DNA of 63,060 bases, the filler included, from Stramenopiles sp. TOSAG23-6 (taxonomy: Eukaryota): NCBI GenBank assembly GCA_900128565.1. It is 22 parts of 22 records of this genome, joined end to end, with 100 filler letters (N's around TTAATTAATTAA, not from the genome) between each part and the next. Parts side by side here need not be neighbours in the genome. Positions count along the whole stretch, not along the records: positions 28,857 to 31,622 come from LT637830.1; 21 more parts are not named here. The stretch is one strand, 5' to 3'. Shown here piece after piece: positions 8,691-62,992 of the stretch (the stretch's first letter is position 1; each line of letters starts with the position of its first letter). A program made the translations under genes and the position numbers. The notes below the pieces were generated by a model, which made no database searches, was not told where the DNA came from, and saw only the letters and a list, made by a program, of their open reading frames with translations.

Positions 8691-9770
<1,080 letters not shown>

Positions 9771-13003: not shown

Positions 13004-14278
13004 GTAAAAAATTTATACAAAAAAAAAAAAAAATTAAAAAATTAAAAAATTTTTCGTGTAAAAAAAAAAAAAACATATAACATACAGAAACACTTTTGTT
13101 TTGCTTTTGTTAACTCTTGTTTTAAATTTTGTTCTGAAGCAGCAGATGCTTGGCATTGTAAATGTAACCTCTCTTCATATTGCTGAACTATTCCAGATGA
13201 TGGTAGATGTTGATATCTATTTTTTAAACTCTGAATTGTCGATTGAGCTAACTGCAAATCCGCTTCCGTACCTCGTAACTGCTGAGATAAAGAGTCAGCT
13301 GTTTTTGTTGCTGCAACAGCTTGTTCTTTATTCTCTTTGGCTCTTAACTCTACCATTTCATGTATTTTGAAAGAATATTTCAAAATTTACAAAAAAAAAA
13401 AAATGTTAGGTACAAAATTTTCAAAAAAAAAATTAAAATTTTTTTTTGGTAAANAACCAAAAAAAAAAAAAAAANAAAACATACATATTTTTTTGAAATA
13501 TCTTTGACAAGTTGGCCCAATTTTGTATTGCTTAATTTTTCGGCAGACCATTTTTCTTCAACACTGCAAATATTTTTGTCACTTTCTCGACTTTTTTTCA
13601 AAATTTCTGTCTTTAACTGATTGATTTCACGACCACGAGCACATAGTACTGTATTTTGGAAAAAAATTTCAAAATTTTCTATAAAAAAAAATTCGTTAGG
13701 TACAAAATTTCGTATGAAAAAAAAAAAAAAAACTTCGATTTTTTTTTTTTTTTGGTAAAGAAAAATAAAATAAATAAAATAAAACAGACATGTTTGTGCT
13801 TGAGAATTTTCATTATGTAATCTTTTAATTTCATCCCGCAATGAATTTGTCGTATTCAAATCACTCGAGTGTTGTTTGGATAGTTCGGCATCTAATTCCG
13901 CATTTCGTGACACAATTGTTGCTAATTTCGCTCTTAATTTCGATACTTCCAATCTAGTTTGATGAAGGATTTGACCACGAAGACGTTCAAGTTTTTCTCT
14001 TGTAAGTACATTTCCATCATGTGTATTGATATTATCTTGATCATAGCCTTCAGTATTCCATGAATGATTAGGATTATCAAATTCTATTTCGTCATTTTCG
14101 TCATTTAAATGTCCGAACTCGATTTGATCTTCTAAATCATTAATTTTGGATTGAAGTAATGCAATTGCATTTGCGTTTTCAGCTCTTTCGTTATTAAATG
14201 TGAGAATTTGTGCTTCTGTATGACTTCGGGTAAATTCACTTTTTCGTAGTGCAATTCGGAGTTGTGAGATTCTCTCAA
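11585..14278 (-). CDS. Coiled-coil protein with C-terminal IEMNECGTNT repeats, multi-exon, partial
   Basis: Frames join across introns 13649-13789 (GT-AG), 13360-13484 (GT-AT), 12948-13085 (GT-AG) and 12156-12272 (GT-AT); homopolymer frameshift near 11850. Confidence 0.65.
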
Positions 14279-18356: not shown

Positions 18357-19413
18357 TTACTTAATGCTTAAAAGCATATTAGAAGAATTTCCAGGTGGCA
18401 TATATGTGACATTTCGAGATCTAGCAAGAGTGTGTGCAATCTCAGTGGCAGCATGAATTCTACTCAACTCCAAGAAACCATTTCCATGTGTTTTAATAGA
18501 TTCTCCAAACAATTCCGCGGATTCAGACTCACCTTCAGAGGTTATAATTTTAGCTTTCTTTTCTTGTTCAGATTTTTCAACAATAAATTTTGCACGTTCG
18601 GCTTCCTGCTGTGCAACTTGCTTGTGCTCAATAGCTTTGGTAAACTCTGNACCAAATGTAAGATGACTGTTGTATTAAAAATATTGTCAAACAAAGTTTT
18701 GAAATGAGACATTGAAAATATAAAAGCAAATAGTAAAACACATAATTTGTTGGAGAAATTTTCATAGTAAAAAAAAATAAACTTTAGATTGATTATTGTC
18801 AGAATGTTGGGACCTTTTCGTAATCACTTGTGGGTTGCAACACCCAGTCAGTCGAAAGATGGTTTAATTCCAATCATCATACAATTTTAAATCAAATGAA
18901 AACAATCTCAAAGANTTCGTACGAAAAAAAAAATGAAATACTTTAAATTGGCAATTTTTTGCTATCGTACCAAACAAAAAAAAATCGTTAGGTACGAAAT
19001 TTCGTATGAAAAANAATCGTACCAAACAAAAAAGGGCTCGGGCAGAAATCTCAATCGTTCATCGAGTATTTGTTTGTAGAACAAAAGTCTCAATTAATTG
19101 TGTTGTCGTCAATGCCCTCAATGATTGATTGATGCCATAAATCAAAATAAAAGATCATAAAAATGGAAAATAACACGAAATATTTCAAAATATTTCATAC
19201 AATCTGTACAAAACATTAGGGTTAGGGTTTGTGTAATAATATTACGTACGTAATTGATACATCATCCAAATCAATATGAAATTCAGCACAGCGAGTGGTC
19301 AATTGTTTACGAATATCTTTAGAAACTTCGTCACGCTTCGTTAAGAGCTCTGAAGCAGGATATTGAGCGACTACAGACTTTAAAACTTCATTGCCTACAG
19401 AGGGAAGAACTCT
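18357..19413 (-). CDS. PHB: Prohibitin, last two exons (18357-18666, 19250-~19413); absent from the ORF track
   Basis: [18 protein letters not shown]...[36 protein letters not shown] intron 18667-19249. Confidence 0.92.
18795..18885 (-). ncRNA. Intronic box C/D snoRNA with two LSU rRNA guides
   Basis: Box C ATGATGA, D' CTGA, C' GTGATTA, D CTGA, terminal stem ATTGT/ACAAT; guides antisense to the conserved LSU segments CGAAAGAUGGU and UGUUGGGACC. Confidence 0.88.
19033..19118 (-). ncRNA. Probable intronic box C/D snoRNA with degenerate boxes
   Basis: Stem AGGGC/GCCCT, C-like TTGACGA, D-like CCGA; antisense to LSU CAGAAAUCUC and GUAGAACAAAAG. Confidence 0.6.
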
Positions 19414-25833: not shown

Positions 25834-26078
25834 GTACGTTTTCATCATTCAGTTCAAATTTATTTTTTTTGTACCAAATTTTGTACCTAANNNNNNNNNN
25901 NNNNNNNNNNNNNNNNNNNNNNNNNNNNNNNNNNTTAATTAATTAANNNNNNNNNNNNNNNNNNNNNNNNNNNNNNNNNNNNNNNNNNNNGTTTTATTTT
26001 TTTTNAAANTTTGNTTTTTTTTTCNTACGAAATTTTGTACCTAACGAAAAAACGTTGAAATATTTTTCCAAAATACAT

Positions 26079-27353
26079 TCGATATGTTTTTGGAATGCCT
26101 TTTAATTCAAAAGATCTTGAACGTGCCGGGGCAGCCAATGCGTCTTCAATCTGTCTGTTAAGTTCACATGGTGAAGAGCATCATTTTTATAATGAGAATA
26201 ATTTTCATAATGAATATGGTTCTTCTAATACTATATCTCGCCGAACATCTTCAGTGCGTAATAGCATTTGTAGTAGTAACCCGATTGGTACAATGGGTGT
26301 TATGGGTTCCTTGGTGGGCTCAAATGCAAATAGAATTCACCGCAATTCATGTATCTTTTATTTTTTTTTCAATTTCGAATTTATTTTTTTATAAAAATTT
26401 TGTATCTAACGTTTTTGTTTTTGAAATATTTTTCCAAAATACATCAATGCCTAGTAATAGAAGTAATTCAATGTTAGGTTCTGTGATGGAAGCTGAAAAT
26501 AGTCGTACGGTTGACGCGGATGTTTTAATGTCTTCAATGGAAGTGTACGTTTTTATCATGAATTTATTAATTTATTATTTTTTTCATACGAAATTTTGTA
26601 CCTAACAAATTTGAGTTTTTTTTTTTTTGAAATATTTTTTCACAATACGTTGCAAGTGTTGTTTCGAAGAATTATACACAACATGGAAATACCTCTTTCC
26701 CATCGAAATACACTACAATTAAACGTCCTTTTTGTATCTCAGAGTTACAACATACATCTAATATTCCACTGGCAGTATCAACAAGTGTATCTTTTGTTCG
26801 AGGTATCACACCAGAGGACCGAAGTAAAACTGATTATCTACCAGAAGTTGAAAAGTTGCAACAACATATTAACTCATTTGTTAAAGGTGCATCGTGTTTG
26901 AAAAGTGTCCAAGGTGAAGATACAAATACTTTACCCTTCTTACAACCAGAATATGCTGCCGGGCAAGTGTTTTCTGCAAAAATGATGGACTCATTACTAG
27001 GACAGTTGTTTTATAATTCTGATGTACTAGCTCTAATTCAAGGCATCTTAGGCACAGGTGCTGGATCCAATATCTATCTTTGGGATGTTCATGATATAGT
27101 AAGTCGTAATTCTAACCAAGCCAATAATGAAGAGACAGAATCAAAGATAAATTTACCTTGTTCTAATACTCAAAAAGTTAGAACATACGGTCAATTATTC
27201 CAGAAATTAGTCACACAACCAGAAATAAGTCAAGTTCCGCTCGGCTTATATCGACCTAAAGGTTGTAAAGGGTCTCTTCTACCTTATGTGTGTACAAATC
27301 CGTCGGCGAGTACGCGCCTAGTTCGGGGTGACTGTGTGTATGTTCTCGCATAG
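26079..27353 (+). CDS. Ca-activated (BK/Slo-type) K+ channel, C-terminal RCK region
   Basis: DLERAGAANAS, ISELQH, YAAGQVFS..MMDSLL.Q.FYN, TYGQLF, PLGLYR, YVCTNP, DCVYVL; introns 26351-26444 and 26545-26650. Confidence 0.88.
26351..26444 (+). mobile_element. Introner-like intron, GT...AT
   Basis: CAT|GTATCT...TATCTAAC...CCAAAATACAT|CA; in frame. Confidence 0.85.
26545..26650 (+). mobile_element. Introner-like intron, GT...GT
   Basis: AAGT|GTACGT...TACCTAAC...CACAATACGT|T; GT duplicated at both junctions; restores MEVASVV. Confidence 0.85.
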
Positions 27354-27400
27354 GGATAGTTTTGTTAGACTTTATATTTATTTAATGAAAATCTTTATAA

Positions 27401-27760
27401 TCAAACTGCTAAAACGTTGCCTAATTCACCCGAAGTTTGTAACTTTTCTATTTCTGAGCAACCACCAATTGATTTTCCATTTACGAATAATTTTGGTACA
27501 GTTCTTTGACCAGTTATCCGCTGCAAAGCATCCTGCACTTCTTCCGCAGAAACACAAGTATTCTCGAAGCAAACGTTCTGATTAGTATCACTGAGGTCTA
27601 TCTGTTGAATAAGATTAGTTGGAACATATCCAGATAATATCCCCATCGCGCGAGAGCAGTAACCACAACCCACTTTCTTAAAAAAAACTATATTAGTTTG
27701 AGAGATGAGACCTTGTACAACATCATCGGCATCTCCTATCGAACTTTGCGCCAGGCCCAT
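27401..27760 (-). CDS. Glutaredoxin (dithiol, CGYC)
   Basis: CGYC, TGQRTVPKLFVNGKSIGGC. Confidence 0.95.
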   Translation of the reverse strand: MGLAQSSIGDADDVVQGLISQTNIVFFKKVGCGYCSRAMGILSGYVPTNLIQQIDLSDTNQNVCFENTCVSAEEVQDALQRITGQRTVPKLFVNGKSIGGCSEIEKLQTSGELGNVLAV

Positions 27761-28028
27761 TTTAATTATTAGCTAAACCTAAAAAAACAACAAGTTGTTG
27801 ATGCCGGAGCCCTAACCCTAATTAATAAATTGAATAATTCGAATTGTCGGTTTTTGCCGGTCAACTTTCGTCCATCTTTCGTCCATATATTTAAACATTA
27901 TTTTTCTAGTAACCACTTATTTATGTAAAAGGATCATATTATTACGTGTGTTACCTGATTAGTTCCTCGATAAAATTATTTTAGACTTATCCCTTTAAAA
28001 CTTAGGAGTTTACCTCGCATTTGTAGAG

Positions 28029-28697
28029 ATGGATGGGACGTGGCAAAAAACAGATTCCATGCAAGAGTTACACGACGCTGAAAACGATCCGTGGTCTGTA
28101 GACGATTCTCTTACTGAATTAGAGCGATTCTGTTTATTTGCTAACAGTGGTATTGATTTACAGAGATGGCGTGGAGTTGATATGCTGAAAGATGCGTTGG
28201 AGTCTCATCCAAAAAAAGTGGAGGCTGTAGCTTTGGTACTTCCATTGATAGAACAACTTTCACAGGATAAACATCAGGTAGTCCGACAGCATCTTGCCGA
28301 GCAGCTTCCTGCCGTCGCAATTCTTTTACATGATACACAGCTAGGTGAGTCAGGTTATGAATATATCATCAATGTAATTATACCTACTTTGAAACGTCTT
28401 GTGTTCGATGATGGTAGTAATGCTATTAGCAGTGACAAAGACGAAGACTTCGACTATGGTGATGGCACTCAAGTTCGTACTGCTGCTTGTCATGCTCTTG
28501 TTGCGGTTGCGCGTCTAATAAAACGTGAAGATCTTGTTCCACATGTACTCACAATCGCTCTTCAACTTGCTCATGAGGACTCTCGTGATGAATTGCGAAT
28601 AACTGCTGCTCTTTTAATTAATGCTTTAGCTCCATGGTTGGGTCCAGATATTTGTGCTGAATTTGTAGGACCTGAAACGATTAGTCTTGCTGAGGAT
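28029..28697 (+). CDS. HEAT-repeat protein, PP4 regulatory subunit 1-like, first exon
   Basis: DDSLTELER...VVRQHLAEQLP...QVRTAAC..LV; ends at family donor GAT|GTGTGT (28698). Confidence 0.7.
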
Positions 28698-28917
28698 GTG
28701 TGTTTTATTTTTTTTCAAATTCGAATTTTTTTTTCGTACGAAATTTTGTACCTAACNNNNNNNNNNNNNNNNNNNNNNNNNNNNNNNNNNNNNNNNNNNN
28801 TTAATTAATTAANNNNNNNNNNNNNNNNNNNNNNNNNNNNNNNNNNNNNNNNNNNNCTATATTCATTGTTGTTGGTTACTATGTGGTGGTTGCTAGATCG
28901 TTATTTTCTTTATTCAG

Positions 28918-31544
28918 ATGTTAGAACTTTATCGCTATCTCTGAATCTCAATCTTGCAGCAGTCTTTAACAAATTAGGTCATTGGGAAGATGCAGTCTCT
29001 GCTTCAACAGAAGCGCTCCGTATTGATCACAAGAATGTAAAAGCTTTGTATAGACGTGCTATTGCACGTACTAATTTAGATCTCTATGACAGAGCAAGAA
29101 CAGACCTCGAGAAACTTCTGGAATATAAATCAAATTACAAACCTGCGCTTGACCACCTTCGGAATATTTCTCTTGCACAAGGCGAAACTATTGAACCTGA
29201 TTCTACACATGCAGTTTCGGATGACACTAGTTTAAATGACACAAAAAACTGGGCGAAGGAAATTTCTCCAAAGTTCATAAAGCAAAACATATTCTTAGTG
29301 GGAAAGTTTTTGCAATAAAATTGATCGAAAAGGATAAAATAAAACGAATGCAGATTCGACATCCGAATATGTACGGTTTCCTGATGAATTTCGAATTTAT
29401 TTATTTTCTCATACGAAATTTTGTACCTAACGAATTTTTTTACTATATTTTTTTTCACAATACATACATAATGAAATATTAATGGAAAGAAAGATTTTAA
29501 AACGGTTTTGTAATAAGCATCCTAATATCATCAAATTTTATGGTACATTTCAAGATGAGCATGCTCTTTATTATGTACGTTTTATTTTTTTCAATTTTTT
29601 ATCTAATTTTTTTTTTTTTTGGTAAAAAAATTTTGTACCTAATAAAAACAAATATATATTTTTTCACAGTACATGTCATGGAATATGCTCAAGGAGGAGA
29701 ATTGTGGAGTCATTTGGTTGATCAAAATGACCCTCTGAGACGTCAAATAGGCTGCTCACTTCAAGAAGCTAGATTTTACATTGCGCAGGTTATAAATGCG
29801 TTGGCGTTTATGGGAGCACAAGGAGTTGTTCATAGAGATCTAAAACCTGAAAATATGATGTACAATTTCATGATGAATTTCAAATTTTTTTTTTTTTTTC
29901 TGGTATGAAATTTCGAACCTAACGATTTTTTTTTACGAAAAAAAAAGAAAACAATCTTCACAATACATGATTATTGAGTCAGGACATCTTAAATTGATTG
30001 ATTTTATGACTTGCAAAGATCTCGTAGATCCCGAACTAAATGGACCTGAGTATGTCGGAACTCCGGAATACATGGCACCTGAAGCCATTAATGGAGAAAA
30101 AGGTGATGATGTAAATTGTTCAGCTGATTTATGGTCACTTGGCTGTTTCATATTTCAATTAATTGCTGGTTATCCTCCATTTAAAGGTGGTAGTGATGTA
30201 CGTTTTCATTATTTTTTTGCCTATTTGTTTTTCATATGAAATTTTGTACCTAATAACAAAATTTTTGTAATATTTTTTCACAAAACATTATTTAACTATG
30301 CGAAAAGCTCTTGCAAGACAACTTGTTTTCCCTCAAGGCTTTGATAAAGACGCACAGAATTTAATTTCAAATTTACTTACTTTAGATCCAAAGGAAAGAG
30401 TTGCTCGGATCATGGGTATGCAAGTTGATTCATTGAATTGTGTTGCCCATGAGGAAAAACAACATATGAAAAATACAAAAAATAATACAAAAAATAATAA
30501 AATGAAGGAGAATAGTAATGAAAATGTAACAACGAATCAATATTTTGCTGTAATCAAACAACATCCATTTTTTAACGGAATTTGTTGGGATTCGTTACAT
30601 GATGAAACACCACCACCAATTGATGAATCAGAACTTCAAATTCGCACATTTGAAACAAATATTGATGAGGAGTGTTATGGATACGGAACATTTGCAATCG
30701 ATAATTTTCATAATCAAAATCTTGATAAAAATGTATCGACAATTTCAATGAAACAACGTTTTGCTCTGATGCATAGATTAGACGTAAAAGAAATTTTACT
30801 TCCAAATATGCCTTTATTTTATAAAACGGAAGGTCATTCTCGTTCAGTGTGTGCGAGAAGAAGAGAATATTTAGGATTAGGTAGATTAGGAAATGATTCA
30901 TTTTCAAAAAAGTTTTCTTTTATGTATTTGTCGTTTGATACTCGTGGTTATGATGGAACGGATTTGAGTAAATCTTTATTTCGTTCTGCTATTATGCATA
31001 TTAATGTAAAAAGTCCGACATTTGTTGTGATTTCTGGTCGTCTCATTGGAGCTGCATCAGGAACAAAGAAGTACGACAAACTTGTCTCTGAATTTCATAA
31101 ATTCATTGGTGACATGAATGAAGATATTAATATATGCTTTGTAAGTGGAAATAATACTGGTGGTGAAATTGAATTTTCATCAAATAAATCATCAAATGAT
31201 ATAGAATCAATAACAAATGATTCTTCCCAACAGAAGTATAGTAGATGGTCTAACTCTAACTTAGAGATATATCGTCATAACTTTGGTGATGATTTTTATG
31301 GTATCTGGGTGGGTGGAATTAGATGTTTATTTCTAAATTCTTCACTATGGGAATCTAAATATGAAACTGATGGTCCATCAAAATTGAGCCAAACGTTGCA
31401 CCAAAAAGATCAAATGCAGTGGTTAAAACATGAATTATATGTCGCATCTTTATGTGCTCAACATGTTTTAGTTTTTGCACAACATTCTTTCTTTAATTTT
31501 GGTGCTAAACACACAGAAGATATATTATTACCACTAGAAACTAT
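28918..31544 (+). CDS. TPR + AGC/PDK1-like kinase + CPPED1-like metallophosphoesterase fusion, partial
   Basis: TPR (NVKALYRRA); kinase [41 protein letters not shown]...LFLNS...WLKHEL...VFAQH; four family introns; frameshift near 29245. Confidence 0.85.
29371..29465 (+). mobile_element. Introner-like intron, GT...AT
   Basis: Restores [16 protein letters not shown]. Confidence 0.9.
29575..29674 (+). mobile_element. Introner-like intron, GT...AT
   Basis: Restores [13 protein letters not shown]; a CAG 5 nt upstream of the end would shift the frame. Confidence 0.92.
29860..29968 (+). mobile_element. Introner-like intron, GT...AT
   Basis: Restores [22 protein letters not shown]. Confidence 0.92.
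30198..30288 (+). mobile_element. Introner-like intron, GT...AT
   Basis: Restores [15 protein letters not shown]. Confidence 0.9.
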
Positions 31545-31810
31545 GAACGTTTTATTGTTTTTCAAATTCGATTTTTTTTTCGTACGAAATTTTGTACCTA
31601 ACGAATTTAAGTTTTTTTTTTTNNNNNNNNNNNNNNNNNNNNNNNNNNNNNNNNNNNNNNNNNNNNTTAATTAATTAANNNNNNNNNNNNNNNNNNNNNN
31701 NNNNNNNNNNNNNNNNNNNNNNGTTTTATTTTTTTTNAAANTTTGNTTTTTTTTTCNTACGAAATTTTGTACCTAACGAAAAAACGTTGAAATATTTTTC
31801 CAAAATACAT

Positions 31811-33085
31811 TCGATATGTTTTTGGAATGCCTTTTAATTCAAAAGATCTTGAACGTGCCGGGGCAGCCAATGCGTCTTCAATCTGTCTGTTAAGTTCACA
31901 TGGTGAAGAGCATCATTTTTATAATGAGAATAATTTTCATAATGAATATGGTTCTTCTAATACTATATCTCGCCGAACATCTTCAGTGCGTAATAGCATT
32001 TGTAGTAGTAACCCGATTGGTACAATGGGTGTTATGGGTTCCTTGGTGGGCTCAAATGCAAATAGAATTCACCGCAATTCATGTATCTTTTATTTTTTTT
32101 TCAATTTCGAATTTATTTTTTTATAAAAATTTTGTATCTAACGTTTTTGTTTTTGAAATATTTTTCCAAAATACATCAATGCCTAGTAATAGAAGTAATT
32201 CAATGTTAGGTTCTGTGATGGAAGCTGAAAATAGTCGTACGGTTGACGCGGATGTTTTAATGTCTTCAATGGAAGTGTACGTTTTTATCATGAATTTATT
32301 AATTTATTATTTTTTTCATACNAAATTTTGTACCTAACAAATTTGAGTTTTTTTTTTTTTGAAATATTTTTTCACAATACGTTGCAAGTGTTGTTTCGAA
32401 GAATTATACACAACATGGAAATACCTCTTTCCCATCGAAATACACTACAATTAAACGTCCTTTTTGTATCTCAGAGTTACAACATACATCTAATATTCCA
32501 CTGGCAGTATCAACAAGTGTATCTTTTGTTCGAGGTATCACNCCAGAGGACCGAAGTAAAACTGATTATCTACCAGAAGTTGAAAAGTTGCAACAACATA
32601 TTAACTCATTTGTTAAAGGTGCATCGTGTTTGAAAAGTGTCCAAGGTGAAGATACAAATACTTTACCCTTCTTACAACCAGAATATGCTGCCGGGCAAGT
32701 GTTTTCTGCAAAAATGATGGACTCATTACTAGGACAGTTGTTTTATAATTCTGATGTACTAGCTCTAATTCAAGGCATCTTAGGCACAGGTGCTGGATCC
32801 AATATCTATCTTTGGGATGTTCATGATATAGTAAGTCGTAATTCTAACCAAGCCAATAATGAAGAGACAGAATCAAAGATAAATTTACCTTGTTCTAATA
32901 CTCAAAAAGTTAGAACATACGGTCAATTATTCCAGAAATTAGTCACACAACCAGAAATAAGTCAAGTTCCGCTCGGCTTATATCGACCTAAAGGTTGTAA
33001 AGGGTCTCTTCTACCTTATGTGTGTACAAATCCGTCGGCGAGTACGCGCCTAGTTCGGGGTGACTGTGTGTATGTTCTCGCATAG
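31811..33085 (+). CDS. BK/Slo-type K+ channel C-terminus (duplicate copy)
   Basis: Same as 26079-27353. Confidence 0.85.
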
Positions 33086-33132
33086 GGATAGTTTTGTTAG
33101 ACTTTATATTTATTTAATGAAAATCTTTATAA

Positions 33133-33492
33133 TCAAACTGCTAAAACGTTGCCTAATTCACCCGAAGTTTGTAACTTTTCTATTTCTGAGCAACCACCAA
33201 TTGATTTTCCATTTACGAATAATTTTGGTACAGTTCTTTGACCAGTTATCCGCTGCAAAGCATCCTGCACTTCTTCCGCAGAAACACAAGTATTCTCGAA
33301 GCAAACGTTCTGATTAGTATCACTGAGGTCTATCTGTTGAATAAGATTAGTTGGAACATATCCAGATAATATCCCCATCGCGCGAGAGCAGTAACCACAA
33401 CCCACTTTCTTAAAAAAAACTATATTAGTTTGAGAGATGAGACCTTGTACAACATCATCGGCATCTCCTATCGAACTTTGCGCCAGGCCCAT
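33133..33492 (-). CDS. Glutaredoxin (duplicate copy)
   Basis: Same as 27401-27760. Confidence 0.95.
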   Translation of the reverse strand: MGLAQSSIGDADDVVQGLISQTNIVFFKKVGCGYCSRAMGILSGYVPTNLIQQIDLSDTNQNVCFENTCVSAEEVQDALQRITGQRTVPKLFVNGKSIGGCSEIEKLQTSGELGNVLAV

Positions 33493-33760
33493 TTTAATTA
33501 TTAGCTAAACCTAAAAAAACAACAAGTTGTTGATGCCGGAGCCCTAACCCTAATTAATAAATTGAATAATTCGAATTGTCGGTTTTTGCCGGTCAACTTT
33601 CGTCCATCTTTCGTCCATATATTTAAACATTATTTTTCTAGTAACCACTTATTTATGTAAAAGGATCATATTATTACGTGTGTTACCTGATTAGTTCCTC
33701 GATAAAATTATTTTAGACTTATCCCTTTAAAACTTAGGAGTTTACCTCGCATTTGTAGAG

Positions 33761-34429
33761 ATGGATGGGACGTGGCAAAAAACAGATTCCATGCAAGAGT
33801 TACACGACGCTGAAAACGATCCGTGGTCTGTAGACGATTCTCTTACTGAATTAGAGCGATTCTGTTTATTTGCTAACAGTGGTATTGATTTACAGAGATG
33901 GCGTGGAGTTGATATGCTGAAAGATGCGTTGGAGTCTCATCCAAAAAAAGTGGAGGCTGTAGCTTTGGTACTTCCATTGATAGAACAACTTTCACAGGAT
34001 AAACATCAGGTAGTCCGACAGCATCTTGCCGAGCAGCTTCCTGCCGTCGCAATTCTTTTACATGATACACAGCTAGGTGAGTCAGGTTATGAATATATCA
34101 TCAATGTAATTATACCTACTTTGAAACGTCTTGTGTTCGATGATGGTAGTAATGCTATTAGCAGTGACAAAGACGAAGACTTCGACTATGGTGATGGCAC
34201 TCAAGTTCGTACTGCTGCTTGTCATGCTCTTGTTGCGGTTGCGCGTCTAATAAAACGTGAAGATCTTGTTCCACATGTACTCACAATCGCTCTTCAACTT
34301 GCTCATGAGGACTCTCGTGATGAATTGCGAATAACTGCTGCTCTTTTAATTAATGCTTTAGCTCCATGGTTGGGTCCAGATATTTGTGCTGAATTTGTAG
34401 GACCTGAAACGATTAGTCTTGCTGAGGAT
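33761..34429 (+). CDS. PP4R1-like HEAT protein (duplicate copy)
   Basis: Same as 28029-28697. Confidence 0.7.
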
Positions 34430-34646
34430 GTGTGTTTTATTTTTTTTCAAATTCGAATTTTTTTTTCGTACGAAATTTTGTACCTAANNNNNNNNNNNNN
34501 NNNNNNNNNNNNNNNNNNNNNNNNNNNNNNNTTAATTAATTAANNNNNNNNNNNNNNNNNNNNNNNNNNNNNNNNNNNNNNNNNNNNGTTAGGTACAAAA
34601 TTTCGTACGAAAAAAAAAATCGAATTTGAAAAAAAATAAAACGTAC

Positions 34647-35385
34647 GTATTTAGCATATTGAATCTCAGGGTCTGTAAGACCATTACCGATAGCTAACCC
34701 TTTGAGAGGAATGTAAATATCTCCAGATTTTACATTTTTGTTTCCTTCATAGATTCGATGAGTCACAGCAGGAACGTAATGTCCAGCGTAACTTTCTCCA
34801 AACACAAAGAATTCTTTGGTCTTTATGTATTCAGGATGAGCCTTCAAAAATGACTGGAGAAACTCATACATGTCCTCACCAACTTCAGTCTCGTTGGTAT
34901 CATGAGAACCATAGGAGAAACCAGTGCCTGCTGGTTGATCAATGTAAATGAGATTTGCGTTTTCATTCCACTGTAAAAAAATGAATATAAGTTGAAAAAG
35001 TGTGACGTGTGAGTACACAAATCTTAAGGGGGGGGGGGAATCAGAAAAAGGAACACACATAATGATCACGTACAGAGTTTGGATTCGTTTTTGTCGTCAA
35101 GTCAGATTGAACTTTACAAGGGCCGTTTTCGCCAAAGAGAGCAACCTCGGAAGAGCAACCTGGACCACCTGTCAACCAGAGAACAAGTGGGGCGTTTGCA
35201 GGGTCGTTACGTGATTCAAAGAACCAGTAGAAGTAGTTTTTGTTCTGCGTGCCCAATTTGTAATATCCCGAGTATTGTTTTGTTACATCGCACAGTCCAG
35301 AAGGCGATGATGTTTCGAGGGTACCATATGCATTGACACCGACAATACTAGCAAGAGCTAGTACTGTGAAAACGATTGACAGCAT
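34647..35385 (-). CDS. Serine carboxypeptidase (S10), secreted, 3'-partial
   Basis: Signal peptide, WLTGGPGCSS, YIDQPAGTGFSY, GESYAGHY, IGNGLTDP; canonical GT-AG intron 34971-35073; family donor at 34646. Confidence 0.95.
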
Positions 35386-37612: not shown

Positions 37613-37702
37613 CTGTCTATACGCTGAACATAATAGTTGTGTTGATGCTAACCACCCAAGTTGAATTGTGCGTCGGTCTTCGGTGAGAAAGAACTGTGAA
37701 AA

Positions 37703-37736
<34 letters not shown>

Positions 37737-38165
37737 GGACAAAATTTTGTTTAAAAAAAAAAAAAAAAAATTTTTTTTAGTTTCAAAAAAAAAAAAAAAA
37801 AAAATCATACTAAAAAAACCTACAAAATCTCGACGTAATTTTGTTATTGTTCCTCGGGGTATGCATTCTGCATACTTTTTAAATGCTTGTTCTATACTAC
37901 ATTGAGTCTTGAAGATGTGTACAGCTAATTTTTGAACACGAAATAAAAGAAAATGTTCAAATTGAATCATAGAATTGAGTTTTCGCACAGTTGAATATAC
38001 GTTTGATATCATATTAGCAAGATCATTGATAGGATTGAATGATTGACAATATATATTTGGTTGGTCGATATCTCTTTGTATTGAATGGAGATGTTTTTCT
38101 TTTTCTATTGTTGTCGTTGTTGCTGCTGAGTTAGTGACACTATTAGTCGTATCCCAGTCAGTCAT
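37613..38165 (-). CDS. Hypothetical protein, first exons
   Basis: ATG at 38165; GT-AG intron 37694-37823 with a family-like 3' end; donor CAG|GTAATT at 37612. Confidence 0.45.
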
Positions 38166-45931: not shown

Positions 45932-46219
45932 NNNNNNNNNNNNNNNNNNNNNNNNNNNNNNNNNNNNNNNNNNNNTTAATTAATTAANNNNNNNNNNNNN
46001 NNNNNNNNNNNNNNNNNNNNNNNNNNNNNNNACGCGTTCACTGCTCATGTACATTTTCATTATGAATTTCAATTGTTTTTTTTTTTTTAAGAATTTTGTA
46101 CCTAATATTTTGTTTTTAGTGTTCGTTTTCATTCATTTCAAATGTATTTTTTCCATACAAATTCCTAATTTTGTACCATACCTAACATTATTGTTTTGAA
46201 ATATGTTTTCACAATACAT

Positions 46220-51805: not shown

Positions 51806-52957
51806 ATGAACCATTGAACGAGTTTCACTTTAGAATTTTTTGTACGTAATATGTGTAAAGATTCGTACACCACCATTCCAGCAGCAACCGCCCAGCTTTC
51901 AATAATTTCAAATGGAACAGTACATTCCATCCATATAAGATTGTAGTCTTCAATTATAGTTTTTGAAGCTTCCTTAGGGTTAGGGTTTACAATTTCATCA
52001 GGGTTAGGGTTTACAATTTCAGCAGGGTTAGGGTTAGGACCAAAATTGATCCAAATCTCTATTAAAATTTCTATTTGTGACACTTCAAAACCAAGAAATT
52101 GGGAAATTGATAATAATTTTGTCTTTGGATCTATCTCCATGAGACTTTTTAGACGAAACTTTAATCGTTGTTCAAGTTGATCTACTTTATCTACTTTACA
52201 AATTGGTTTTGTACTTTTATTTGAATGATCAAGCTGATTCATCTGGTTAGGGTTAGGGTTAGGGTTAGTAGAAGTACTTATTGTTGTTGTTGCACAATTT
52301 TTCATTGTAGATCGAAGAAAGATTACTCGCTTCACGTAAGTCGACACTTTTTGAATTGCGATTTCTTTGTATGTTTCATAAAAATTAAAATTGATGCTGT
52401 AAACATACATCTAATTTAATTGCATTTCTTGCAATATCAGCAGCAGCAGTATATTGTACTGCAACAATCTTTCTTGAGTCTGCATCAATACCATTTGTTT
52501 GTTTTGTACCAACATTCGTACCTGAGCAATTTTGAATAGTAACGTCTGCATTCTTTGCATTCTTTGCAACATCCACAGCTTTCTTGACGACACTTTGTTC
52601 TTTTATATTTTTTGTTTCTTTTGAGTTTTGAAATGAAGGGTATATTACACTTGTTTCTTTTGTGTTTCTATGAAATGTAGGATATAAAGGTGACTCTCTC
52701 TCTAAATGTACAGTACCTTTCTTCCTATTTTTTTCTTGGAGGCATGCTTTATATTTATTATCAACCATAGTTGTCCATATGCCCTGTGTACGGTATTTAT
52801 CACACATTTTATCAATGACTGCAAGAGACGTTCTTTTTGAATCATCTGTTAACGTAGTATCCACTTTTAATAATCTTGTCAATTTTTCAATAGCCCCAAG
52901 AAGCTCTGCTTCAGAGGTGGCACTTGCGAATGACTGAAGCACTGCTGACATTGGCAT
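51806..52957 (-). CDS. Protein with an interrupted MIT-like domain, partial
   Basis: AADIARNAIKLD and KEIAIQKVSTYVKRV flank a truncated intron at ~52370-52408. Confidence 0.5.
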
Positions 52958-53385: not shown

Positions 53386-54385
53386 ATGCCTGTAAAAAAT
53401 CGTAGTACTATTGTAGAGCCTTGCTATGATGGTGAACAAATACTGCACGTAGTCGAATATGTAAAAAACTCATTGTATTATGTTTGTCTACCCAACAATG
53501 TCTTCCCTCCTAGTAAGAAAAAAGGCGAATGTTGGGTGAGTATTGATAAGCATTTGATTTACAGTCCATTTTTCTTAGATTTTGGTCCTCTTAACATAGC
53601 ACAAACGTTTCGATTTTTTCAAATACTTGGTTCAAAACGTTGGCAAGCGTATTTAGAATTAACGAACAACTCAAAACCTAAAAAAAAGATTTCATCGTCA
53701 AAATCGTCAAAAGGCAAACAAAAAAAAACTTTCAGCGTCGAAAAGCAAACAAAACTGCAAATTCAAATATGTAAAGAAAACGATCAAAGTAGATCATGAT
53801 ATATTTGGAAAGAATGCTATAAACAAAGGAAAGGTGTACTTTTATTCTACAATGGATCCAAAACTTCGTACCAATGCAGTCACTTTGCTCTGTATTTACG
53901 GCACTCTTGTTCTTGTACGTTTTCATCATTATTTTTTTTTTTTTTGGTAAAAAATTTTTCGTACCTAACAAAATTTAAAAAAAAATGAAATATTTTTTCA
54001 CAATATTGGATCTATCCCCAGAAGAAGCTTGTCTTCCTTTTCAAAATTATGAAGAAACGTCAAAACTTCCTTTTGTGAACTTCCACGATCCGACACCTTT
54101 TGACTGTACATGTACGTTTACATCATAAATATTAAATTTAAATTTCGAAATTAAATTTTGAACAAACAAAAAAAAATTAAATTTTTTCAAATTTTTTTTT
54201 CATTTGAAATTTCTTACTAACAAATTATTTGAATTGAAATATTTTTTCAATGCACATACCCATTGTCTATTATTGACTGTGTGCGAGGTGTTAAAAGAGC
54301 AATGAACGATAATTTTTTTAAAATACATAAATTTAATCTTGAGGAATATGAACACTTCGAACGTGTCGAAAACGGTGATCTCAAT
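53386..54385 (+). CDS. CDC14: CDC14-family dual-specificity phosphatase, N-terminal part
   Basis: YSPFFLDFGPLNI, RTNA, SPEEA, DCVRG, FNLEEYEHFERVENGDLN; introns 53915-54008 (GT...TG) and 54112-54257 (GT...AT); A-run frameshift near 53725. Confidence 0.93.
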
Positions 54386-54658
54386 GTACGTTTAAAATTA
54401 ATTTTTTTTTTCATACGAAATTTTGTACCTAACTATTTTTTTTTTGAATTTTTTTTTTTCATAGAAAATTCTGTACCTAAAAAAAAAATTTTATAAAAAA
54501 AAAAANNNNNNNNNNNNNNNNNNNNNNNNNNNNNNNNNNNNNNNNNNNNTTAATTAATTAANNNNNNNNNNNNNNNNNNNNNNNNNNNNNNNNNNNNNNN
54601 NNNNNTACGAAATTTTGAACCTAACAATTTTTTTTTGAAATATTTTTCCAAAATGCAT

Positions 54659-57256
54659 GATTTACATTCGGGCAAATTGTGATGCACAAGCTAGGCGTTG
54701 TATTAATATTTCTCAAGGTTTGAATCCAAATTCTCCAGAAGTCTGGATAGCTCATGTACATTTTCAAAATTAATTCTTTTTTAAAGTTTTTTCGTACGAC
54801 ATTTGTTACCTAACGAATTAAAATGTTTTTTTTTTTTTTCACAATACATGCACGTATTATTAAAAACAATATAACCTTGAACAAAGAAAAAATCTCCGAG
54901 AAACTGATTAATGCGTTTGAATGCGCAACTACAATCCCACCCCCATCGATTACACCATTTAATGCCTTATTTAGTTTGGCTCATTCATTTATTCATGTCA
55001 AAAAGTTTGCTGAGGCAGAAAATCGATTACGTTTACTTTCAATTCGTACGTTTTTCATGATGAATTTCAAATTTATATTTTTTTTCATACGAAATTCCAT
55101 ACCTAACAATTGCTTTTACGAATTTTGTTTTTACATTTTCACAATACAGGTAATCCATGTGGGAAAGTATATATTTTACGTGGTGTTTGTTTACAGTTAC
55201 AACACCGATGGGTTGATGCGTCTGATGCCTTTTTACATGCATTTACATTTTTCAAAAATAATGAAAAGTCGATGAATCTTGATTCAACAGAATTAAATTG
55301 GAGATTTCAACTATTATTGAAATTATCAAAAGAAGGTTTCATTCGTTGTGCTGCACGAATACCTCTCAAATCTAAGACATCTCATATAGTCAATACATTA
55401 GATACACTAGCTACTACAAAGATAGAGCAAGCTGAAGTTGTATGTTGTCCACTTTAATTTCAATTTGAGTTTTTTTTTTTCGTAGAAAATTTCATACCTA
55501 ACAACTTTCAAATTTGACATATTTTTGCACAATACTTGCTTTCGGGAATGAAAACTGGGACCTAGCAGCAAGGTTATACAGTACAATTATATCTGAACGA
55601 AAAAAAACTATAAGTGAAGAAAATAATGCAAATAATTCATTTGTCAATCTGTATATGTCAACTGCTATATCTTTTTTTCTATCAAAAAAGTATGTAGAAT
55701 TCCAAAACATAATCCAAGAAGGTATTGATATATGCAGTAGAAGTACATTTGAAGGATCATTTGAGGGATTAGTTTCATTACTTAAATTGTCTGCTTCTAT
55801 TGAAGCTATTCATGGAAACACTATCAAAACAATTGCGACTGTTAAACAATTAGATGAAATTACTGATACATATAATCCAGAAAATGTAATATTGAATTCA
55901 TTATGCTATCGTACAATATCGAGTGACATAAAAAATGTGTCTTCAATTCTCCAATTATCTCTACGATATTATCCTAATGTAAGTCGATTATGGATATATT
56001 TTGGATATTCTCTCTTATCCTTACCATACGATACAAATAATGATTCTACAGACCAATCGAATATTACAAGAGCAACAAATGCTGCTTTGTCAGCTGCAGA
56101 AACAAGTAAGACAACAAATGAAGAAATTGCAGCGAAATTGTTGTTTGGTGTATGTAACTTTAGAAAAGGATTTTGTCGTGAAGCATCATCAAGTGCTCAA
56201 ATTGTATTACGCAATGATCCGAATAACACAAGTGCTCTTTTACTATTAGCTTTATCCGAAGTATCAAAGAATATTGAATGTAATTCTAAAAAAACAAAAA
56301 ACATAAAAAGAATTGAATTTTCGTGTAATTTATTACAAAGAGTAATACAACAAATGAAATCATTGGATTCATTTACTTTGAAAGATCAAAAGTGTCTTTC
56401 AACAATTCTATGTGTGTCTCAATTATTGAATAGTGAAAACATAGACATCATCATGAATACTGTAAAAGATTGTGATGAAGCAGTGAAACTATTATTTCGT
56501 GCAAGAGCAATTGTTACACATAGTTCTAATGACTACAAGGATGCAATTGATGCTTACTTGTTGGCTACTAAAGCATTAGCTGAAGAATCAGAAGATAATG
56601 AAGAATTAGGTACAGTGTATTGTAACAAAAAATTACATCGACGAGGTCAATTATTTTTAGCATTTCATGAACTTGCTTCGATATATATGAAACATGATAC
56701 CTTACAAAATATAAATTCAAATGAAAATTCTATACGATGCCTTCAACGTGCGGCACGAATTGCTCCAACAAAATTAGGTAAAGCTGTATCCTATACTCAA
56801 CTTTCTCTCCTTCATTTTGATGCATTAAAACGATTTAATATGACAAAAAGCTCAAAACAAGGTATACAAGCCATTAACAAAGCGATGAAACAATTTTTTA
56901 TTTTAGGTTGTACATCTTTCAACAAAAAATGTATGGAGGAAAATGGATTAAAGAGTGAATTTCTAATGGATCATCAAGACATCATTAGTTCTCAATCTTC
57001 TATAGAATCAGCATCATTATCTTCAACTTTAGTTGCAAAAAGTTTTTTTTCTGAAGGGTCTTGGGATGATTTTACTACCATTATTTCTGCCAGTCGAAAA
57101 TTTCTTCATTTTAGCTGTCTTGCTAAATGTAAACTTCAAAAAAAAAAAAGTTTTCCAGATACATCGGAAACTGTGATGATGAATATTATTGAAAAATTAT
57201 TGTGTTTTTGTGGTAGTGCAAAAAGTAGACAAAATTCTTCAGAACCGAGATGGTAA
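54659..57256 (+). CDS. TPR protein, SKI3/TTC37-like C-terminal part
   Basis: SQGLNPNSPEVWIAHA and further TPRs; in frame across introns 54756-54849 (AT), 55046-55149 (AG) and 55440-55537 (TT). Confidence 0.65.
55046..55149 (+). mobile_element. Family intron with canonical GT...AG ends
   Basis: TTC|GTACGT...TACCTAAC...CACAATACAG|GT. Confidence 0.88.
55440..55537 (+). mobile_element. Family intron, GT...TT
   Basis: GTT|GTATGT...TACCTAAC...CACAATACTT|GCT; TT duplicated at both junctions. Confidence 0.85.
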
Positions 57257-57511
57257 ATGGGTGTTATTAATGTTTAAATAAATTAGTGGTTGTTTTTATT
57301 ATGTAAAAAAAAATCTTTTTTGTTTAGGTACAAAATTTCGTACGAAAAAAAAAATAAATNNNNNNNNNNNNNNNNNNNNNNNNNNNNNNNNNNNNNNNNN
57401 NNNTTAATTAATTAANNNNNNNNNNNNNNNNNNNNNNNNNNNNNNNNNNNNNNNNNNNNTATAAATTTTTTGAATAACCCTTACCAAAAAAAAAAAAAAA
57501 AAAAAATTTTT

Positions 57512-58905: not shown

Positions 58906-59127
58906 TAGGAAAAAAATTTCGTACAAAAAAAAAAAAAAAAAAAAAAAAGAAAAAAAAAAGCATTTTAAATTCATAATGAAAACAAACATGTGCCTTCATT
59001 CTATTGACTTGTTTCATTTGTATTTGTACTTGATACAATTTTTTCATAATTTTATTTTTCACATATTCAATAGCTATTTGTCTTCTGACTTTATTTACAT
59101 CTGTAGCAATCCAAATAGATATATACT
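58379..59127 (-). CDS. Hypothetical multi-exon gene fragment
   Basis: Three short exons separated by poly(T)-expanded family introns join in frame. Confidence 0.4.
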
Positions 59128-59207
59128 GTATTGTAAAAAAAAAATTTTTTTTTTTAAATTTTTTTTGTTAGGTACAAATTTTCGTACAAAAAAAAAAAAA
59201 AAAAAAA

Positions 59208-59243
<36 letters not shown>

Positions 59244-59302
59244 GTAATTTTGTACTTAACCGAAAAAAAAAAAAAAAAAAAAAATATTTTTTCACAAAAA
59301 AT

Positions 59303-60135
59303 GTTTGCGACAGAAATTCAGCTATACAAAGACGAAAATGTAAATATATCAAACATTCCCATGTATCGTAATAACACGGCATGCTGTGATTTGATCTCAC
59401 TAAAACATAAGAAATTTCTTGGTATTTTTCCAATATTAAATGATTTATGTACAACACGAAATACGAGACATTCAAGTGCAGAAAATTTCGTGTCAAATTT
59501 AACTAAAAAATTTGGTAGAAAAAAAGGATTTTTTTTTGATGCACAAACTAAACAAGTAAAACAAAGTTCAATGTATTTTTATGGAGATTTTCGAAACCGA
59601 CAAAGCTTTTCAATTGTTCATTATGCACGAGATGTTAAATATGATGTATGTTTTTTTAAAAAAATTTTAAAAAATTTTTGAAATTTTTGAAATTTTTGAA
59701 ATTTTTTTTTTTTTTTTTCGTACGAAATTTTGTACCTAAACAAAAAACAATTTAAAATTTTTTAAATTTTTTAAATATTTTTTTTTACCATACAGGCCAC
59801 TCAATTTATTGTAAAAAATATGGACAAAGTTCCTCCACAATTATTTGAATTATGTAAAAATAGTTCACAAACATTTATGAAAACATTGTATACTACAAAA
59901 AATACAAAAAATACAAAACATACAAAAAATACAAAAAATATAAAAAAAATATTAGGTACAAAAAATGGTACAAAAAATATAAAACAAACTTTAGTATCAA
60001 AGTATATGCACCAATTAAAGTCGTTAATCAATACATTAGATAATACAACAACACACTATATTAAGTGTATAAAACCAAATAATATTAATTTTAGACCAAT
60101 TGATGGAAGAGCCAGTTTTGATGTATGGAAAATAT
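59303..60135 (+). CDS. Myosin motor domain fragment
   Basis: GIFPILND, FSIVHYARDVKYD|ATQFIVKNMD, THYIKCIKPN; family intron 59646-59795 (GT-AG). Confidence 0.9.
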
Positions 60136-61464: not shown

Positions 61465-61558
61465 GTATGTTTTATTTTTTTTTTTTGTATGAATTTTTTT
61501 TTCGTACGAAATTTTGTACCTAACGAATTTTTTTTTGAAATATTTTTCCAAAATACGG

Positions 61559-62992
61559 GAGGGGCCAATGCTCAAATGGCTTTCGATATATTTCAGAATA
61601 TTTTAAAATCTGGCGAAATTGAGTTCTCGCATTGTACTATACTGCTGAAAACGTGTACTACATCCCAAGATACGCTTAGTGTATGTTTTTTTCACATTTT
61701 TTTTTCATACGAAAATTTGTACCTAACAAACATTTAAAAAAAAAAAATATTTTATTTTTTTTGAGTGATTTTTCTTTCCTCCTGAATTTCAATTTTTTTT
61801 TTTTCCAAATTATTTTTTTTTTGTAAAAACTAACAAAAACATTACATTTTTGAAATATTTTTTTCAATATATTTATTAAATTCAATAAAATCTTCAAAGA
61901 GTCCGTTTTTAGATAGGCAATTAATTGATATAATGTACAGTAAATGTTGTAGTGTAAGTACATTATCATCAGGTGTATCAACTAATCAAACCCTAACCCT
62001 ATCAGAGAATCATATGACTCAAAATTTGTACCACAATTTTCGTATACAAAAAAACATTTTGCTACAAAACCAAGAAAATTTCGATGTTTCATTGAATTTT
62101 GACAAACACAATGGTACAATAATGAATAATAAAAATGGTACAATAATGAATAATAAAAACACAATTAAAACACGGACAAAACGACACATCAACCCTAACC
62201 CTAAACATATAAATTCCCAAATTGATATTTTATACAACACCATAAAAAAACGGTCTCGTAATAACCCTAAAAACCCTAAAAACCCTAAAAACCCTAAAAA
62301 CCCTAAAAACCCAAATACAATAACAATTTTGAAAAATGTCTTATATGATATACGATGTAACCCTAACCCTAATGCTTCTTCGTCGATGCTTGGAAAAAAA
62401 GATTATAGAAAACTTTTATACTTGAGTGGTTTTTTTGGATTGTATTCTGATGTAGGTTTCAAAACTGTTTCTTTCCCTACATTTTTTTGTATAGTAAATT
62501 TCGTACCTAACAAAATTTTTTTAAAATTTTGAAAAAAAAATTTTTTACCTACATTTTTTTTTATAGTAAATTTCGTACCTAACAAAATTTTTGAAAATTT
62601 TTGAAAAAATATTTTTCCACAATACATGCAAAATATATTTTAGATATTATGAAACTTCGTCATGTAATTCCTGGTGCTGAGCATTTTAGTGCATTGGCCC
62701 AACCAATATTAGAAAAAAACACTCACATGGATGGATTTGTATTGAAACTATTTGAGGAAATGTGTACGTTTTCCTAACCCTAACCTAACCCTAACTTTGT
62801 ACTACATTTTTTTTTTCATACGGAATTTTGTACGTAACGAATTTTTACTAAAAAAAAAAATATATATATATATATATTTTTTCACTTTATATGCGTTGGT
62901 CCATGCATTATTGATGATCATGCTGTCATGCTTGCTCTTCGTGCTTGCAAGGGATTCTCGAATGGTGTCGCATCACGAAAAGCAATGGACAT
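61559..62992 (+). CDS. PPR-like helical repeat protein fragment, 4 exons
   Basis: AKYILDIMKLRHVIP, LKLFEEM, LALRAC; in frame across introns 61681-61872, 62452-62627 and 62764-62892 (all GT...AT). Confidence 0.55.

Follow-up and report, generated by a model that had tools for sequence, protein, structure and literature searches.

A high-copy intron family with GT donors and mostly AT 3' ends in a marine stramenopile

Copies of the element and their removal from host genes

How can introns that carry textbook U2-type donor and branch signals be removed when their 3' ends mostly lack AG? The question is raised by a repeated element found throughout a 63,060-nucleotide window of the genome of Stramenopiles sp. 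TOSAG23-6 (GCA_900128565.1), the whole stretch of DNA analysed here, which consists of 22 separate contigs of about 2.8 kb each joined by N-linkers. The focal host gene (28919-31544, plus strand) encodes TPR and PDK1-like protein kinase regions followed by a long C-terminal region. A kinase exon is 100% identical to the public predicted protein P0001, labelled MAST-3 type, and the host is, judged by this match, a marine stramenopile of that type. One contig is present twice in the window (31723-34487 duplicates 25991-28756); counts use the 21 non-duplicate contigs, with this duplicate and copies cut at contig ends left out, and refer to the window only.

Copies of the element were curated from motif scans, a weight-matrix scan and reading by eye. 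A 20-nt 3' motif gave 25 matches at up to three mismatches against 0.04 expected, and the branch motif occurred 46 times against a mean of 0.07 in 30 shuffles, which bears out the shared insertion that an earlier note on this DNA had described. That note had counted 32 copies (24 ending in AT, 4 in AG, 2 in TT, 1 in GT and 1 in TG); its mix of ends is close to ours, but curation yielded 38 complete copies, with 27 AT, 6 AG, 2 TT, 1 GT, 1 TG and 1 GG ends. Their terminal triplets are CAT in 21, TAT in 6, CAG in 6, CTT in 2, and CGT, TTG and CGG in one copy each. Lengths range over 91-212 nt, not the roughly 90-150 nt first given, and 27 of the 38 are not multiples of three. Identity of the 38 to the nearest copies with AT both before the donor and at the end (AT|AT) is 0.62-0.84. 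The window holds many introns that are similar from end to end at unrelated gene positions, which is what characterises an introner. Protein homology establishes the host strand for 16 complete copies, and all 16 lie in the sense orientation, as had been claimed, and removal leaves at least 36 open codons on either side in 33 of the 38.

All 38 copies start with GT; the donor GTAYGT is matched at six of six positions in 26 and at five of six in 10, so that 36 lie within one base of it. A recognisable branch motif is present in 34 copies, with the branch A 32-56 nt from the end, a wider spacing than the 35-45 nt proposed at first, and a T run of at least four is found in 29. By these motifs, donor as well as branch motif and pyrimidine tract would be those of U2-type introns, in agreement with the earlier assignment. 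The YAG acceptor of such introns is not the rule here: an AG end is found in 6 of 38 copies. In eight of the 32 non-AG copies, splicing at the end would mean passing over an AG that lies beyond the branch motif, and first-AG scanning therefore does not describe these copies. Canonical GT-AG introns coexist with it, for example one of 583 nt (18667-19249, minus strand) in what we take, from its sequence features, to be a prohibitin-like gene; the host gene names Ski3-like, PP4R1-like and channel are presumed in the same way. This 583-nt intron itself holds a degenerate piece of the element, with a branch motif near 18999.

In the kinase gene, four plus-strand copies run GT...AT after an exon ending in AT: intron 1 at 29371-29465 (95 nt, putative branch A 29430), intron 2 at 29575-29674 (100 nt, putative branch A 29642), intron 3 at 29860-29968 (109 nt, putative branch A 29922) and intron 4 at 30198-30288 (91 nt, putative branch A 30253). 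Their removal restored the conserved kinase motifs named in the earlier note and gave a frame that is gap-free at all four junctions against P0002; P0003 and P0005 show gaps only away from the junctions. In a profile of relatives, all 27 in-frame GT/GC-AG alternatives within 45-60 nt scored below exact removal, the best canonical alternatives trailing by 15.9, 7.8, 13.1 and 21.4 bits for introns 1 to 4; the profile comprises 40 of 132 relatives, picked by BLAST to the exact model and hence biased toward it. The statement that the nearest AGs break the frame or delete the conserved alphaC Glu proved slightly too strong. Intron 3 has an in-frame AG 21 nt upstream, which would add seven residues and scores 13 bits worse; in intron 2, a CAG 5 nt before the end shifts the frame with the same donor. 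At the same places, a public GT-AG gene model lacks 8 residues, inserts 3 and 7 residues, and has one wrong stretch. This model is a prediction with indels relative to orthologues, and it illustrates how AG-only gene prediction mis-models such genes. Among transcript-derived proteins, a search for near-identical matches to the spliced genes returned only the public gene model or distant kinases (at most 60% identity). A fifth copy in the kinase gene, from 31545, is incomplete and begins with GA in place of GT.

A calcium-dependent kinase (CDPK) gene on the minus strand (813-2246), identified by homology, contains six complete copies, at 2246-2133, 2032-1905, 1646-1514, 1398-1273, 1189-1044 and 921-813. 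Removing all six yields a 425-residue frame that aligns with CDPKs. In a profile of 25 of 150 relatives, exact removal beats the best alternative by 5.2, 20.7, 10.8 and 2.7 bits at introns 1 to 4.

The contig carrying this gene (1-2745), picked for its intron density and its mismatched copies, was compared with assembled contigs from three RNA runs and one DNA run (X3). The fifth copy (1189-1044, 146 nt) runs GT...TT after an exon ending in AT and is, at an identity of 0.65, among the most diverged. RNA mapping, which the earlier note had asked for, produced a poly(A) metatranscriptome contig (X8 record 20, 162 nt, depth 3.6) that follows 1258-1190 and continues with 1043-951, skipping this copy exactly. 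The split rules out the canonical alternative that the profile prefers at this intron. Because the upstream AT and the terminal TT differ, it also fits an intron starting at GT (or a one-base slide) and not one running from AT to AC. In the DNA run, an X3 contig spans 1625-1900 and holds part of the 1646 copy, and none of its three differences changes an amino acid in the spliced CDPK frame. The comparison gave at least 15 joints that are repeat-driven; an X8 contig matching 239-474, which stops at a junction, was set aside as evidence, as were exons without coverage and summed depths. Removal from mRNA with the frame kept is supported by homology at eight junctions (four in the kinase and CDPK introns 1-4) and, more thinly, by one RNA contig. 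That the element is a real intron family with non-AG ends is well supported.

Probable target duplication, candidate inverted repeat and register

The last two bases of a copy equal the two bases before its GT in 24 of 38 cases (permutation p=5e-4), GT|GT and TT|TT copies included, and of the five ends with a base other than A in second-last position, four agree with the corresponding base upstream (p=1e-3). AT precedes the donor in 25 of 38 copies, against a frequency of 0.106 for this dinucleotide in coding sequence; T ends the upstream exon in 36, and G follows the insertion site in 21. In addition, the first four bases pair with the four that precede the terminal dinucleotide in 31, 36, 29 and 22 copies, respectively, while the fifth does so in 2. 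The layout most likely reads NT|GTAY...RTAC|NT, in which a short inverted repeat would be flanked by a 2-bp target duplication whose second copy acts as the acceptor. Such a layout would account for the odd ends by a single hypothesis. It also bears on the AAATAC motif, which had been suggested as a splice signal: the motif is indeed conserved, yet its last bases form the inverted repeat that pairs with the donor; its conservation would then partly reflect mobility, and it need not be a signal.

Direct repeats other than AT also speak for the duplication. The plus-strand copy at 26545-26650 is consensus-like and flanked by GT on both sides, and the one at 55440-55537 (plus strand) is flanked by TT, with no in-frame AG within 60 nt of its end for the same donor. 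A further plus-strand copy, at 53915-54008 in a Cdc14 phosphatase gene, has TT upstream and TG at its end; a search of solved structures with the middle exon of this gene gave no match.

Three AG-ended copies are clear family members: 59646-59795 (plus strand, AT upstream), in a myosin gene whose exons fall at consecutive profile positions (to 496 and from 498); 13649-13789 (minus strand, AT upstream); and 55046-55149 (plus strand, TC upstream). The AG-ended copies starting at 35073, 37823 and 13085 have diverged so far that they could instead be older introns of unrelated origin. For that at 37823, an end at 37689 giving TT|TT flanks was rejected and the end was set at the CAG at 37694, because only this end keeps the frame. 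Divergence is greater in AG-ended copies than in the others (p=0.045; the divergence tests here and below are post hoc and on small numbers), and where the last upstream base differs from the last intron base, as in nine copies, the intron carries G in eight. This pattern suggests selection toward A and G and a spliceosome that tolerates non-AG ends without preferring them. The earlier proposal of a 3' site defined without AG therefore stands as regards introns with non-AG ends, on homology and the RNA contig, but not as regards indifference to AG, given the coexisting GT-AG introns and the drift toward AG.

One consequence of the duplication is that the junction can slide by 1-5 nt, and GT-AT, TG-CA and AT-AC cuts give the same mRNA at most copies. 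To choose the register, we therefore rely on the donor consensus, the AG-ended members and the RNA contig, with a conserved Leu in the kinase as weak additional support.

Proposed mechanism and alternatives

We propose, with a probability of roughly 0.7, that the family is an introner of the miniature inverted-repeat transposable element type, removed by a U2 spliceosome with relaxed acceptor proofreading. A non-autonomous DNA transposon, about 90-110 nt long when young and with 4-bp inverted ends GTAY...RTAC, would insert at NT sites, mostly AT, and duplicate those two bases. It would bring a yeast-like U2 donor GTAYGT, the branch motif TACCTAAC and a T tract, and the downstream duplicate would supply the last two intron bases, such that a cut from GT to NN leaves the mRNA as it was before the insertion. 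The host U2 spliceosome, which we infer both performs the excision and chooses the site, would commit on donor and branch point and, by way of the usual lariat chemistry, ligate 32-56 nt downstream, past the T tract, at YAT or another triplet, with U-1 replacing G-1. The likely cause would be an altered U2AF or a loosening of 3' proofreading of the Prp18/Slu7/Prp8 kind; AG would remain the better acceptor, and older copies would drift toward it.

Yeast genetics offers a precedent for such proofreading. Yeast without Prp18 uses HAU (best CAU and UAU) and BG 3' sites, with G+1 donors and a need for upstream U tracts, and U-1 was proposed to pair with G+1 (PMC10711555). In our family, 29 of the 32 non-AG ends belong to these classes (27 YAT and 2 BG). 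The two cases differ in that the yeast reaction is a low-level side reaction of a mutant (PMC10711555), whereas in this organism most introns would normally be spliced in this way. A broader version of our proposal, to which we give somewhat less than an even chance, holds that the wild-type U2 spliceosome of this stramenopile lineage has largely lost the AG check at exon ligation, for example through loss or change of Prp18/Slu7/Prp8 or U2AF1. Most introns, thousands genome-wide, would then combine a canonical donor with an end in YAT, TT, GT or BG whose position is set by the branch point, the T tract and the terminal motif, and one transposon family would have exploited this, its copies turning AG with age.

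Several observations weigh against the transposon-derived, U2-spliced reading. At CDPK introns 5 and 6, where the alignment is poor, the profile favours a canonical alternative (by 2.9 and 8.9 bits). RNA support consists of the one X8 contig, which has two differences of unplaced position and could come from a strain lacking the copy at 1189-1044. Element-matching contigs are abundant in the RNA runs (795, 991 and 135 records, against 5278 in X3) and may represent precursor RNA, retained introns or DNA carry-over. Of the sequence words in the kinase-side stretch, just 0.06-0.13 occur in the RNA runs, and the kinase reading itself rests on homology. The TPR and kinase frames of this gene differ near 29240, at an A run that suggests a sequencing error but may also mark an assembly error or a real frameshift. 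Five of the 38 removals lead to short open frames: 8861 (a probable chimera), 46049 (beside a contig end), 57817, 58987 and 61465. The last of these (61465-61558) is near-consensus and ends in GG; its removal meets a stop after 15 codons, reading through it is also open in frame, and by hand a canonical in-frame reading starts from a GT two bases upstream, but the copy was kept in the count of 38. Three ends (2 CTT and 1 CGT), including the RNA-supported one, fall outside the HAU and BG classes. Finally, the inverted repeat is only 4 bp long and overlaps the donor, and among the 13 copies whose upstream base is not A, nine have A downstream, as if the element brought its own end.

The last point leads to the strongest of the alternatives, in our estimate an improbable one, which keeps the same splicing and dispenses with target duplication: an element TG...CA would insert between N and T, or RNA-borne copies would spread into proto-splice sites, and the repeat would be a by-product. 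Identical sequence is predicted at AT sites, and the nine of 13 copies with A as second-last base as well as the T that ends 36 of 38 upstream exons would follow naturally. It fails to predict, however, that the four of the 13 that repeat an upstream G or T are the most consensus-like, at 0.77-0.82 against 0.62-0.75 for the nine with A (Mann-Whitney p=0.0014, post hoc).

Slightly less probable is that the copies are recent insertions that are largely unspliced or cryptically spliced, with the RNA contig derived from an element-free strain. The single bridging contig, the many element-bearing contigs in RNA libraries, the frame break near 29240 and the other, canonical sites of the public model all fit such a view. 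Against it, genes carry four to seven copies each, 16 of 16 in sense, with frames intact on removal and only synonymous variants; the public model is itself only a prediction. The independent DNA run X3 holds the 1646 copy, and the bridged copy, at an identity of 0.65, is so diverged that it is unlikely to be still polymorphic.

Less probable again is excision independent of the spliceosome, guided by structure or protein at the inverted ends, as proposed for the nonconventional introns of euglenids. The inverted and direct repeats at the borders and the 8 of 32 non-AG copies in which an AG would need to be skipped favour it. Yet an alignment of 20 copies yielded no consensus structure, with 0 consensus pairs, the inverted repeat spans only 4 bp, the branch motif is kept in 34 of 38 copies, and the drift toward AG is a spliceosomal signature. 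Membership in the euglenid class was rejected on the 0 consensus pairs between the ends and the T-rich tract.

The least probable alternative places true AT-AC introns two bases upstream, removed by the minor spliceosome or as U2-type AT-AC introns: an AT...AC cut gives the same mRNA at 22 AT|AT copies, uses a known spliceosomal pair and would account for the AT bias, but none of the 38 copies, read from the shifted start, agrees with the U12 donor RTATCCTT at more than 5 of 8 positions (neither register has a perfect match, and the GT register reaches 7 of 8 in one copy), the X8 contig is split at GT...TT where the registers differ, the six AG-ended introns are canonical in the GT register only, and the shift places His at a kinase position where relatives have Leu in 89 of 108 and His in 0 (42 of 150 being without the motif), an argument that loses force because a canonical alternative scores just 5 bits lower.

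Related systems and the state of the assembly

The closest known parallel to the U2-spliced, transposon-derived family that we propose is found in the larvacean tunicate Fritillaria. Its introns are transposon-derived, with inverted ends and a target duplication that forms a YAY 3' site (PMC13326754; PMC11282704); AT is the commonest 3' end (44% in F. pellucida, 34% in F. borealis), the U2 spliceosome removes them, and divergent U2AF paralogues are linked to the non-AG ends (PMC13326754). Transposon origin, an acceptor made by duplication and AT ends would thus be shared (PMC13326754; PMC11282704). Fritillaria differs in that AG opens the main intron classes of F. borealis, non-canonical introns make up 95% of the total and donors are mostly non-GT (PMC13326754). 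The stramenopile family, in contrast, has a perfect GTAYGT donor, a strong branch motif, one dominant sequence family and a 2-bp duplication.

Introners of Micromonas, Aureococcus and Chrysochromulina are likewise high-copy similar introns in which the element supplies one splice site and the duplication the other (10.1101/2022.06.06.494994; PMC11282704), but these have canonical GY-AG ends with rare GC and GA donors (10.1101/2022.06.06.494994; PMC12130899), whereas our family uses a non-AG duplicated NT. The non-canonical introner elements of Amoebophrya are repeated introns with inverted and direct repeats at their borders (PMC7789003). They have 8-20 nt inverted repeats in hairpins, 3-5 nt direct repeats and varied ends, and U1 is reported as not found (PMC7789003); the present family has 4-bp ends, no hairpin and an invariant GT. 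ISL2EU DNA transposons make a 2-bp AT target duplication (PMC4482050), and an identity with them was rejected, as they need an A|AT|T target, have GG ends and inverted repeats of 6-259 bp and occur in animals (PMC4482050), against GT ends and 4 bp here. In Physarum, an expansion of U12-type introns with a proposed TA target has been described.

The earlier note knew of no GT-AT family of this kind, and our literature search likewise found no report of it, though supplementary tables of the introner surveys and of the tunicate paper could list it or a GT/AT class. AT acceptors tied to target duplication, however, were already known from Fritillaria; what is new is an introner with a non-canonical acceptor in a lineage far from tunicates. 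A literature search for non-canonical introns or splice sites in MAST-3 returned no paper, and a search for splicing in papers on protist single-cell genomics gave no passage. Introner surveys start from annotated introns (PMC12130899). Since genes of this kind are mis-modelled, AG-only annotation could hide such families in other uncultured protists.

If correct, our reading would mean an independent origin of mass non-AG splicing in a lineage distant from tunicates and dinoflagellates. It would also be a cleaner case, with a textbook U2 donor and branch point and the acceptor alone altered, which isolates the questions why almost all introns end in AG and what factor imposes this. Predictions are available from yeast genetics (the Prp18 pathway) and from tunicates (U2AF), and selection on the individual acceptor bases would be readable from thousands of copies that differ in age.

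Searches around the element returned the following. No snRNA or spliceosome genes were found in the window. The element patterns had no match in the metagenome contigs, viral contigs and prokaryote genomes searched, and no related DNA locus was found in these sequences. No empty site was seen, and no transposase was found, though no scan of the window aimed at transposases was made.

The element motif lies within 110 nt of the contig end at 24 of the 42 ends of the 21 non-duplicate contigs, and the assembly thus appears to break at the repeat. The copy at 8861-8959, which joins two pieces in different frames, a fragment of ferrochelatase and an EF-hand gene (region 8693-9767), is probably a mis-assembly through the repeat; chimeric joins of this kind may explain some of the flank mismatches. 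At 59126-59302, a minus-strand and a plus-strand 3' half of the element abut back to back without donors, an arrangement that looks like an amplification or an assembly inversion.

Three introns (46049-46219, 62452-62627 and 54386-54505) have the branch-motif segment duplicated internally and carry two motifs each. A partial copy at 57294-57359 (minus strand) lies antisense just beyond the stop of a long plus-strand gene and may belong to a convergent neighbour. At 52373-52411 (minus strand), GTATGT follows AT between two open frames, without a branch motif and with no frame-keeping short intron by hand. A tandem repeat of a segment of about 170 nt lies close to a contig end (19850-20144), and telomere-like CCCTAA runs occur at 2370-2430, 52000-52260, 62200-62310 and 62770-62795, in exons and in some copies of the element.

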